Source: a virus
Taxonomy: Duplodnaviria > Heunggongvirae > Uroviricota > Caudoviricetes
IMG/VR virus record: IMGVR_UViG_2778261688_000001
Span: 1-4,554 of that record
DNA length: 4,554 nucleotides
Strand: one strand, 5' to 3'
The notes beneath the pieces are model-generated. The model ran no database searches. It had not been told where the DNA came from and saw only the letters and a list, made by a program, of their open reading frames with translations. Of this stretch, positions 1 through 4,554 are shown one piece after another. The stretch's first letter is position 1. Every line of letters begins with the position of its first letter. Position numbers and translations under genes: made by a program.

Positions 1-892
1 GCAGCGTTAACGGTGATGGTGTGTCCATGTGAACCAATCGCAACGGAGTGCGTATGAGCACCAATACCGACAGTATGTGCATGTGCGCCTGCGCTTGCAG
101 CAGTGCCGGACAGCGAGTGGGTATGAGCACCATCTGATGATGTCTTCCCTGCATTACGAGTCTGGCCACTACCGCTTGTTGTGCTCATAATCCCCGCGCT
201 TAGATTTGAAATCGCGGTATAACCATTAGGGAAAATGCTCGTGTTCGTGCCACCAAATGCACCGGAACTCTTGTGTTGGTGCGCACCGGCACTATTTGCG
301 GTCCCGCTAATACTATGGGTATGCGCCCCGGTGTTATTCGTGGATTTGGTTCCGTAATCAAACGACGATGTGGTTTTCGTCCCCAAATCCGTACTGGATG
401 CGCTGGCGCTGTGGGTGTGCGATTTAATGCCGTCCTGTTCCTGAGATAATACGGCCCGACCACTGGCGGGCTTGCCCTTAATCGTCCAGCCACGCATATC
501 AGGGATCACGCCTGACGGATAAGCAACTGCAAGTTTCGGGTATGCAGATTTGTCAAAAGTCTGCCCCTGCATCAGGGCATAACCAGACGGAACGGTATCT
601 GATGGCCACGGGATTGGTGCACCGACTGGATAAAACTCTGCAGGAGGATGAGCCGAGGTGTAAAGCTGCGCCCACGGCGACCAGTTTGCGTCGGTCGTAT
701 CCCGTCGTGAACGAATAAATGCCGGAGCATGAGCACCGCTTGTACCACTCCAGCCGATGAGTAACTCACCTTCGCCAACGGCTGTCATCCCTTTCAGGTG
801 AATGATATTTCCATACGCTGTTGGATATCCGTTGTTATACACCTCGTATAACTCAAGACCTGCTGCCCCCTGCGTATTGTCTGTCAGCGCGG

Positions 893-894
<2 letters not shown>
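1..894 (-). CDS. stf: Side tail fibre protein (Stf-like) C-terminal region; 5'-truncated gene remnant lacking its native N-terminus and start, 3' end beyond the window start
   Basis: Hand translation of the minus-strand frame with codons at 899-897, 896-894 ... 5-3 shows no stop from 905 to 1: ...[149 protein letters not shown]...GAHTHSISG...GAHQHK...GAHTHSLSG...[29 protein letters not shown]. The PWPSD...[29 protein letters not shown] block and GAHxH repeats are characteristic of lambda Stf / T4 gp37-type distal fibre domains. Not listed in the ORF track because it runs off the window edge. Confidence 0.75.
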
Positions 895-3287
<2,393 letters not shown>

Positions 3288-3353
3288 GCTGGAGGGGTCA
3301 TCCGGCGTCCATTTGAGGCCAAACGGCGTCTCTTTGTCGCCAAATTTAAGATA

Positions 3354-3356
3354 CTA
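3354..3356 (-). other. In-frame amber (TAG) codon within the terminase large subunit gene
   Basis: Forward cta at 3354-3356 is TAG on the minus strand in the gpA frame. By my recollection of lambda gpA (…CPHCGEE-Q-YLKFGDK…) the wild-type codon is Gln, probably CAG, so a single C-to-T transition would create it. Confidence 0.85.
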
Positions 3357-4094
3357 CTCCTCCCCGCAGTGCGGGCAGGCAACATGAAAACGCATAAAAT
3401 GCAGGGATTCACTGGCTGCACGCTCAATCTGGCAGGTGCCTCTCACTTTGGGCGTGGAGCCACGGATGGACTTTGGCCAGACCGAGCCTTCAATACGTTT
3501 GTCGCCAAGGAACGTCGGAGAGCCTTCCTGTTCAATATCCTCATCAAAGGCAGCAAGTTCATCATAACCCGCCACATCCACCGACTTTTCACGGTAGTTT
3601 TTTGCCGCTTTACCGCCCAGGCACCAGAAGCCACGACCATTGGAAAAACGCTTCATAGTGAGCGTGTTATCCCGGTGCTTTTTGCCATACCACGGAGCCA
3701 GCGCCAGCAGCGACGGAATATCGCGGATGGTCGGCTCAACGTGGGTTTTCATAAAGTTCTCGGCATCACCATCCGTCGGCAACCAGATAAGGGTGTTGCG
3801 CTGCTTATGCTCTATAAAGTAGGCATAAACACCCAGCAGCATTTTGGAATAACCGACACGGGCAGACTTCACCACATTCACCTCACGGATGTAGTCGCTG
3901 CCCATCGCATTCATGATGGCCCGCTGAAAGGGCAGTGTTTCCCAGCGCCCTTCCTGGTATGCGGATTCTTTCGGGAGATAGTAATTAGCATCCGCCCATT
4001 CAACGGCGGTCTGTGGCTCCGGCCTGAACAGTGAGCGAAGCCCGGCGCGGACAAAATGCCGCAGCCTGTTAACCTGACTGTTCGATATATTCAC
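3354..4094 (-). CDS. A: gpA N-terminal fragment (246 aa) ending at the amber codon; the only product expected without an amber suppressor
   Basis: ATG at 4094-4092 and TAG at 3356-3354 on the minus strand. The sequence covers the Nu1-interacting N-terminus and the ATPase Walker A region of terminase large subunit. Confidence 0.8.
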   Translation of the reverse strand: MNISNSQVNRLRHFVRAGLRSLFRPEPQTAVEWADANYYLPKESAYQEGRWETLPFQRAIMNAMGSDYIREVNVVKSARVGYSKMLLGVYAYFIEHKQRNTLIWLPTDGDAENFMKTHVEPTIRDIPSLLALAPWYGKKHRDNTLTMKRFSNGRGFWCLGGKAAKNYREKSVDVAGYDELAAFDEDIEQEGSPTFLGDKRIEGSVWPKSIRGSTPKVRGTCQIERAASESLHFMRFHVACPHCGEE

Positions 4095-4554
4095 TCAGCA
4101 ACCCCGGTATCAGTTCATCCAGCGCGGCTGCTTTGTTCATGGCTTTGATGATATCCCGTTTCAGGAAATCAACATGTCGGTTTTCCAGTTCCGGAAAACG
4201 CCGCTGCACCGACAGGGGGATCCCGTCGAGAATACTGGCAATTTCACCTGCGATCCGCGACAGCACGAAAGTACAGAATGCGGTTTCCACCACTTCAGCG
4301 GAGTCTCTGGCATTTTTCAGCTCCTGTGCGTCGGCCTGCGCACGCGTAAGTCGATGGCGTTCGTACTCAATAGTCCCTGGCTGGAGATCTGTCTCGCTGG
4401 CCTGCCGCAGTTCTTCAACTTCCCGGCGCAGCTTTTCGTTCTCAATTTCAGCATCCCTTTCGGCATACCATCTTATAACGGCGGCAGAGTCATAAAGCAC
4501 CTCATTACCCTTGCCACCGCCTCGCAGAACGGGCATTCCCTGTTCCTGCCAGTT
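4069..4554 (-). CDS. nu1: Terminase small subunit Nu1 (DNA-packaging protein), 5'-partial; about the first 20 codons lie beyond the window end
   Basis: Minus-strand frame open from the window edge to a stop at 4069-4071. Codons 4554-4537 read NWQEQG, then MPVLRGGGKGNEVLYDSAAVIRWYAERDAEIENEKLRREVEELRQ...SEYIEQSG, which I recognise as lambda gpNu1 (181 aa in lambda). The 3' end overlaps the gpA start by 26 nt (4069-4094), as in lambda. Confidence 0.9.
   Translation of the reverse strand, partial: NWQEQGMPVLRGGGKGNEVLYDSAAVIRWYAERDAEIENEKLRREVEELRQASETDLQPGTIEYERHRLTRAQADAQELKNARDSAEVVETAFCTFVLSRIAGEIASILDGIPLSVQRRFPELENRHVDFLKRDIIKAMNKAAALDELIPGLLSEYIEQSG

Follow-up and report, generated by a model that had tools for sequence, protein, structure and literature searches.

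A recurrent, nucleotide-precise deletion breakpoint in the stf tail-fibre gene of Qin-type Escherichia coli prophages

The DNA analysed here (the window) is a stretch of 4,554 nucleotides held as IMG/VR virus record IMGVR_UViG_2778261688_000001, which is identical to the entire contig NLGU01000056.1 of the Escherichia coli draft assembly GCA_002225785.1 in reversed orientation. On its minus strand the window carries, in this order, the lambdoid genes Nu1, A (large terminase), W (head-tail joining) and B (portal), followed by a remnant of the tail-fibre gene stf (Table 1), and the Pfam families Phage_Nu1, GpA_ATPase, GpA_nuclease, gpW and Phage_portal_2 were all recovered above their cut-offs. 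The Nu1-A-W-B block matches hundreds of phage and complete E. coli records at 98-99.9% identity, with the match stopping at window 895, and window 1-896 shows 100% identity to tail-fibre genes. As the flanks match, at 99-100%, genes annotated in thousands of E. coli prophages, this pattern is not a matter of chance. A previous reading of this stretch from its letters alone (the original prediction) had used phage lambda as its framework. The gene order is indeed that of the lambda family, and the rule it offered, by which the window coordinate equals 4805 minus the lambda coordinate, fits what we take to be the standard coordinates of Nu1, A, W and B, but the element is not lambda itself. A 27-kb sister contig with an identical junction (L004) carries upstream the genes cspF, cspB, ynfU, holin, ydfR, lysozyme, cspI, gnsB, ydfO and ynfO, and in complete genomes the relatives, both intact and deleted, adjoin pinQ, ydfK and ydfJ. 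These neighbours identify the element as a Qin-type lambdoid prophage of E. coli located at ydfJ; as the window ends short of the attachment site, its placement at the Qin site rests on the sister contig and the relatives.

To define the junction, the intact prophage L003, which occupies the same ydfJ/Qin locus in strain O22:H8 154, was used as a reference in blastn comparisons. Read along the minus strand, nucleotides 1-3660 of the window correspond to L003 6388-10047 (99.95% identity) and nucleotides 3659-4554 to L003 27935-28830 (100%). Relative to L003 the window lacks 17,889 bp, a gap that reaches from portal codon 359 (first base) to stf codon 710. In L003 this interval contains the last 175 portal codons, followed by C (S49 peptidase), D, E, FI, FII, Z, U, V, G, T, H, M, L, K, I, J and lom, and then the initial 709 codons of stf. 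An alignment had been proposed, to lambda, as a way to fix the breakpoint and look for microhomology; that to L003 places the junction at window 896/895, with a parental overlap of 2 bp (GT). The stop codon of the truncated portal gene (TAA, 895-893) is made by the junction: portal codon 359 supplies the T, as its first base, and stf the AA. L358 is the last portal codon left intact. This is what had been read from the letters, namely a B product ending in ...VFEQSL at codon 358 and lacking about 175 codons, since the intact homologue (L003 8973-10574) has 533 codons, of which 358 are kept and 175 lost.

The assignment of the downstream sequence to an Stf-like fibre gene in another frame was likewise borne out by its match to L003 stf and by the Pfam families Collar and Phage_fibre. 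What remains is a C-terminal part of the gene, as stated, although not its C-terminal half, as only the last 31% of stf is kept. The remnant translates without stops from window 896 to 3 (minus strand) and ends in ...GHTITVNA at codon 1007, because the contig stops 61 nt short of the stf stop codon. Its earliest in-frame start is a GTG at 842-840, 18 codons in, and it is there that gene callers open the open reading frame (ORF).

As both flanks are collinear with L003 on the same strand and the intervening genes are absent, the rearrangement is a simple internal deletion of the head-tail module. The same conclusion had been drawn from order and orientation, and the collinearity on which it was based holds; the idea of a random event does not, as the stf end recurs in other prophages. 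The loss had been estimated from lambda at about 16-17 kb; it is certainly large, but the size differs from that given by the L003 alignment, and as lambda stf has no counterpart of this stf segment, no lambda-based estimate can be exact. The predicted absence of the head and tail genes that lie between B and stf agrees with the L003 gene list, C through lom, and so does the prediction that neither capsid nor tail can be made, as no capsid or tail gene survives the deletion and the prophage can no longer produce virions. We regard the presence of a real 17,889-bp internal deletion in a Qin-type prophage as practically certain. Seen purely as a deletion, it adds an ordinary new allele to a cryptic prophage that was already known.

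The identical junction was found in five distinct contigs, three of them from NCBI assemblies (L004, L005 and L006) and two from Logan assemblies of separate runs (L008 and L009). Together they stand for at least 12 samples, the evidence being assembled contigs and not raw reads, and this argues that the junction is not a mis-join. Window junctions were located solely via an exact-protein look-up. A 35-mer spanning the junction had no match in species-representative genomes or in JGI metagenome contigs, and no complete E. coli genome spans it, pointing to an uncommon lineage. Four more contigs retrieved with the truncated protein (L007 and L010-L012) merely end at codon 358 without showing the junction, and were dropped as junction evidence. 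These contigs come from unrelated runs and mimic the truncated protein, most likely through an assembly-graph branch at a polymorphic base, which calls for caution in exact-protein look-ups in general.

The stf end of the deletion is a fixed TA dinucleotide in the context GGTCGGG-TA-ACCGCGCTGACAG (L003 27936-27937, window 895-894). The 26 nt immediately right of this TA, in the two alleles ACCGCG... and GCCGCG..., were used for exact-match scans of public collections, and the left neighbour of each match was then classified; the strings RCCGCGCTGACAGAC and AAAAGGTCGGG lie on the stf site, the latter being the left flank directly before the TA. About 100 loci contained an intact stf (...AAAAGGTCGGG-TA), and the rest corresponded to distinct junction types at the same TA. 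Including that of the window, 17 different DNA-level left partners were found joined at the stf TA, all of them at L003 27936-27938 (Table 1). An additional fusion was detected at the protein level (P0023), in which the small terminase of a third phage type is joined to stf (...VLETL followed by TALTDNTQG). The in-frame fusion search that yielded it, together with the K-12-type start P0002, returned only proteins of up to 286 aa and is a poor census. Moreover, a scan with the left flank detected a prophage (L401) in which the left half of the site is kept and the deleted stretch lies to the right, reaching into tfa; here too the crossover is at the TA, and the partner has a TA.

The same position emerged from complete genomes. 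A 120-nt query centred on the site was compared by BLAST with 5,426 of them, 1,122 of which contain the region, intact in 685 and partial in 437; the partial class makes up ~39% of the genomes with the stf module, those truncated genomes that were sampled being mostly K-12 and laboratory strains. All of the evenly sampled partial matches (23/23) start at query 57-60, where the TA is query 60-61. Within 60 nt on either side of the TA only one other breakpoint was found, an internal stf deletion located 15 nt upstream (L032). The breakpoint of L001 is a different one (9601 joined to 27033, L003 map) and has a 12-nt microhomology. Deletions at this TA have occurred independently many times, in E. 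coli of different lineages and in no fewer than two types of lambdoid phage, and the stf breakpoint is very probably a site-directed hot spot. No description of a breakpoint at the stf TA was found by full-text literature searching, so the recurrent breakpoint is, as far as could be found, undescribed, and it merits direct experiment.

Table 1. Features of the window and left partners joined at the stf TA. Window positions refer to the 4,554-nt stretch, and L003 positions to the intact reference prophage.
Feature	Window	Strand	L003	Remarks
Nu1 (nohA), 3' part, 161 codons	4072..4554	minus	from 6388 (nohA 6328-6873)	First 20 codons lost at contig end; Pfam Phage_Nu1, E 5e-88, profile 21-164/164
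Large terminase A, 641 codons, full length	2169..4094	minus		In-frame amber at codon 247; Pfam GpA_ATPase, GpA_nuclease
Amber TAG in A (CAG in relatives)	3354..3356	minus		Altered base 3356; comparison with sister contigs
Head-tail joining gene W, intact, 68 codons	1966..2172	minus	8770-8976	Pfam gpW, E 6e-38
Truncated portal B, codons 1-358 and junction-made TAA	893..1969	minus		Pfam Phage_portal_2, E 3e-76, profile 2-311/354
Deletion junction	894..896			GT (896-895, minus) common to both parents; 895-894 is the stf crossover TA (L003 27936-27937); three-line alignments
stf remnant, codons 710-1007 of 1027	1..896	minus	27935-28830	100% identity; out of frame with B, runs off contig end; Pfam Collar, Phage_fibre
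Left partner ynfO			5886	
Left partner Nu1			6856	stf end 27936; K-12 MG1655 Qin
Left partner A			7092	
Left partner B			9404	stf end 27938; strain 33-6
Left partner B			10047	stf end 27935; this window
Left partner E			12458	
Left partner E			13125	
Left partner Z			14201	
Left partner L			20134	
Left partner I			21433	
Left partner, base after lom stop				Placed on L003 map
Left partner stf itself			27305	
Four left partners in second lambdoid type				Portal, head protease, terminator after major tail gene, tape measure
Left partner, unmapped				L412

Several related prophages and proteins show further features of note. Stacked deletions were observed in L094 (1-700), where Nu1 is fused to lom and the end of lom to the stf TA, and in L401 (6000-9200), where three joins follow one another, cos-Nu1 to J, J to mid-stf and the stf TA to tfa. 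In strains 33-6, 58-3 and LZYWN_4 the hot-spot deletion is in frame (L002 8586-9920) and generates a 444-aa portal-Stf fusion that bears the RefSeq name 'phage portal protein'. L014 (NZ_CM132250.1, at the DLP12 locus) has a deletion of its own, from D to stf (12051 joined to 28333, L003 map), off the hot spot, and a free-standing GIY-YIG nuclease gene at 1685-2173, between the lysis genes and Nu1. Finally, in two short proteins, P0014 and P0032, a StfC domain is combined with unrelated C-terminal sequence of host-like character (one a PALP-type enzyme, the other a LacI-type periplasmic-binding fold), suggesting more stfC rearrangements elsewhere.

Comparison of the junctions with their parents revealed a common anatomy. 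TA is present at the crossover in 15 of 17 partner sites of known parent sequence, although it makes up 3.4% of the regional dinucleotides (binomial p ~1e-20). The two exceptions are the window, where a parental TT core gave TA in the product, and strain 33-6, where a parental TG was retained as TG; each product thus carries one of the two parental dinucleotides, as predicted by segregation of a heteroduplex 2-nt core. On the stf side, no base was lost or gained in any of the 18 DNA-level events, the other side lying 0.6-22 kb away. The partner flanks are closer to the stf flanks than those of random TA sites, if weakly (permutation p 0.001-0.01), and the likeness takes the form CGGnTAnCCG, with GGTTA in five partners. 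Twelve left partners are in direct orientation with respect to L003, and those events are therefore deletions; for the partners of the second phage type orientation was deduced from gene direction, and the others were not separately tabulated.

The stf site was also compared with sites of known function. No significant hairpin was detected at it (z-scores of 0.2-0.6, nothing past a 3-bp stem). Local alignment with attR gave only a 10-nt chance match outside the crossover, and the same aligner found nothing significant against cos; on visual inspection, GGTTAC and CGACCT of the bottom strand recur in cosN, the 6 nt between them being missing, which may be taken as a lead only. Judged by their known sequences, dif/XerCD, gamma-delta res, the integron core, IS608 TTAC, BstEII GGTNACC and phiC31 attP each appear to fail on crossover position or spacing. 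The annotated genes downstream of the site in L003 are tfaQ, pinQ, ydfK and ynfT, and there is no transposase among them.

The explanation that we favour as a whole combines a real deletion, a hot spot in stf and a conservative exchange, and we assign it a probability of roughly 0.55. According to it, a 2-nt-staggered cut would be made at the TA and followed by conservative rejoining. One partner would be the specific stf site; as the other, nearly any TA elsewhere in that DNA would serve, those with CGGnTAnCCG- or GGTTA-like flanks being weakly preferred. This would match how a serine-type recombinase or a topoisomerase-like enzyme acts when it meets a true site and pseudo-sites. In the window, the TT core of the partner would have produced a one-base mismatch, segregated to TA. 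Considered on its own, the conservative, recombinase-type nature of the exchange stands at somewhat less than even odds. A little more tentatively, GGTCGGG-TA-ACCGCG, in the stf gene of a family of lambdoid prophages widespread in E. coli, may be the substrate of an unrecognised site-directed activity that joins this site to TAs elsewhere, time and again strips virion genes, keeps stfC-tfa-pin, and produced the Qin prophage of K-12.

A number of observations weigh against this explanation. No candidate enzyme emerged from the sequence. The stf site has no likeness to a canonical Pin/Hin site, and a scan of L003 gave no AAACCnnGGTTT-like match with up to 2 mismatches at or near it. Neither is there a second copy of the site in L003, direct or inverted, the best inverted match of the site 20-mer being 14/20 at an unrelated place, so that the site is neither a transposon end nor part of an invertible segment. 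The resemblance between partner and stf sites would be equally expected from imperfect microhomology. No inversion was found among the mapped events, though a palindromic TA core should yield inversions too; selection for the loss of phage genes, plus the small sample, could mask them. Most hot-spot events were drawn from draft genomes, in regions predicted to be prophage, and the independence of the events was inferred from their differing left breakpoints and not from phylogeny. For the assembly of the window, support consists of assembled contigs.

Alternative explanations concern both the junction and the hot spot. An assembly mis-join of two prophage fragments, with the head-tail module preserved in the real genome, would suit a window that is a short whole contig with both ends in sequence repeated among prophages, as it would the four contigs that stop exactly at codon 358. 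We consider this possibility negligible, as the five contigs that contain the junction come from different projects and assemblers and one of them spans 27 kb, and similar junctions are present in finished genomes such as those of K-12 and of strains 33-6, 58-3 and LZYWN_4. Moreover, the parents share just 2 bp, too short for k-mer joining, so that no assembler could have joined them without spanning reads. That same 2-bp overlap is typical of illegitimate recombination, and would be compatible with an ordinary random deletion whose coincidence with the others is due to chance or shared ancestry; other Qin and DLP12 deletions do have other stf ends (27033 in L001, 28333 in L014). Such an explanation is very improbable, since 17 left breakpoints share one right breakpoint within 2 bp, with no other breakpoint within 60 nt on either side save that of L032 at -15, and shared ancestry is incapable of yielding different left partners.

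Two further alternatives accept the hot spot and differ in how the exchange is made. In one of them, the stf TA would first be broken or nicked site-specifically, the candidate causes being a nuclease, terminase nicking at a half-site, cleavage by a type IA topoisomerase or replication-fork collapse, and microhomology-guided joining or template switching would follow, with the terminal TA of stf pairing with an upstream TA and synthesis or ligation finishing the deletion. This would account for the presence of deletions only, with no inversions, insertions or duplications seen, and for the longer imperfect homology of some partners, such as the 8 nt of L027 (TAACCGCG) and the GTCGGnTA of L036. 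It also finds some support in the bottom-strand GGTTAC, which by eye recalls the left half of cosN, and in the C at -4 on both strands that brackets the TA with a 2-nt stagger, as type IA topoisomerases prefer C at -4 for cleavage. But RecBCD erodes free double-strand ends on both sides, yet the stf side is base-intact in 18/18 DNA-level events, and microhomology joining should vary in position and length instead of using one dinucleotide in 15/17 cases. Also, as L401 shows, the TA can stay with either half of the site, and the searches for cos or attR similarity and for a hairpin described above were negative. We therefore regard a break or nick as the main competitor of the favoured explanation, possible but rather unlikely. 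The other alternative, that PinQ or another Pin-family serine invertase recombines a quasi-site in stf with upstream quasi-sites, appears improbable. It is attractive because serine invertases make a 2-nt staggered cut and Cin reportedly uses quasi-sites that share the core dinucleotide, as described by Iida and Hiestand-Nauer, and because the intact module has pinQ 1.6 kb downstream of the site. PinQ itself is active as a serine recombinase and inverts the pix sites of e14 (PMC12529663), and De Paepe et al. mention, in a remark only, a belief that stf exchanges are invertase-driven (PMC3945230). Those pix sites, which we recovered as a positive control, are AAACC-TT-GGTTT, whereas at the stf site, aligned on the TA, only ~3/24 flanking positions agree by eye and the core is TA, not TT/AA. 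In addition, invertases strongly prefer to invert inverted sites and no inversion was seen, and at the hot-spot deletion of L420 the 1.5 kb retrieved beyond the junction contain no pin gene, tfa being followed there by sitD.

One of the closest known systems is Qin in K-12 MG1655 (nohA-stfQ, b1548/b1547), which shares with the window the ydfJ site, the phage type, the retention of stfC-tfaQ-pinQ and the right breakpoint at the stf TA. It differs in the left breakpoint, which lies at the 3' end of Nu1 (L003 6856) and has eliminated A, W and B, whereas A, W and 358 codons of B are still present in the window; moreover, the K-12 junction creates an in-frame start (MNITALTD...), whereas that of the window creates the stop of B and leaves stfC out of frame. 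Among recombination systems, the b-region deletions promoted by lambda Int, such as b2, have one end fixed at att. The stf deletions resemble them in having one nucleotide-precise end and variable other ends at secondary sites, but their fixed end is inside a tail-fibre gene and has no likeness to attR, and the identity spans 2 nt instead of a 7-bp overlap region. With the quasi-site recombination of Hin, Gin, Cin and Pin they have in common a serine recombinase gene by stf-tfa, a 2-nt crossover, a core that is mostly common to both partners, and mismatched cores that give either parent, but the fixed site is not of the pix/hix type, its core is TA, only deletions are found and there is no inverted partner site. 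Finally, IS607-type serine transposases and Tc1/IS630 transposons use loose targets under a 2-bp-core or TA-target rule. As with these, one defined site is joined to almost any site with the right dinucleotide, but there is no transposase gene, terminal inverted repeat or element boundary at the stf site, which, unlike a transposon end, lies within a conserved intact frame in ~100 prophages and whose left half can also be retained.

Taken alone, the window adds one more decayed prophage. In the usual picture, the decay of E. coli prophages is the result of random deletion filtered by selection, and at least 18 independent deletions with one nucleotide-precise end suggest that at least part of prophage 'domestication' is mechanistically directed. 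A fixed site, a partner TA and no loss of bases constitute a simple assay rule for finding the responsible enzyme, and the same rule would explain the origin of the K-12 Qin structure, in which nohA is fused to stfQ. If true, the site-directed activity proposed above would amount to a route by which prophages are domesticated, either dedicated or hijacked. The always-kept module stfC-tfaQ-pinQ includes PinQ, for which a link to anti-phage defence was recently described (PMC12529663), and in this way the hot spot may influence the choice of phage genes that stay in bacteria.

Apart from the deletion, the window carries a second lesion. Terminase A is seen as two ORFs of 246 and 372 aa in one frame, separated by the amber codon listed in Table 1, and Q247* is the sole protein difference between this A and that of the sister contig L005. 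Codon 247 is TAG in L004, L006 and L008, and CAG in L005 and L009, which have the same deletion, as well as in L003. As the amber is present in three of the five deletion-bearing contigs, the C-to-T change in A postdates the deletion, and the amber is a later, second inactivating hit in a sub-lineage. At window 2745 there is a T (minus sense), silent in A, where L005, L008 and L009 have C; this T is shared only with L004. An inverted repeat of 7 bp (GTTATAC-N5-GTATAAC) is located at window 836-854, 54 nt into the stf remnant, and is faintly gix-like by eye (13/26); as an invertase site it was rejected, because it lies away from the junction and its spacing is wrong. Both contig ends (window 1 and 4554) fall in multi-prophage sequence, the 3' end of stf and the 5' end of Nu1, which match a median of 2 and up to 10 places per genome, and this is probably why the assembly broke there.

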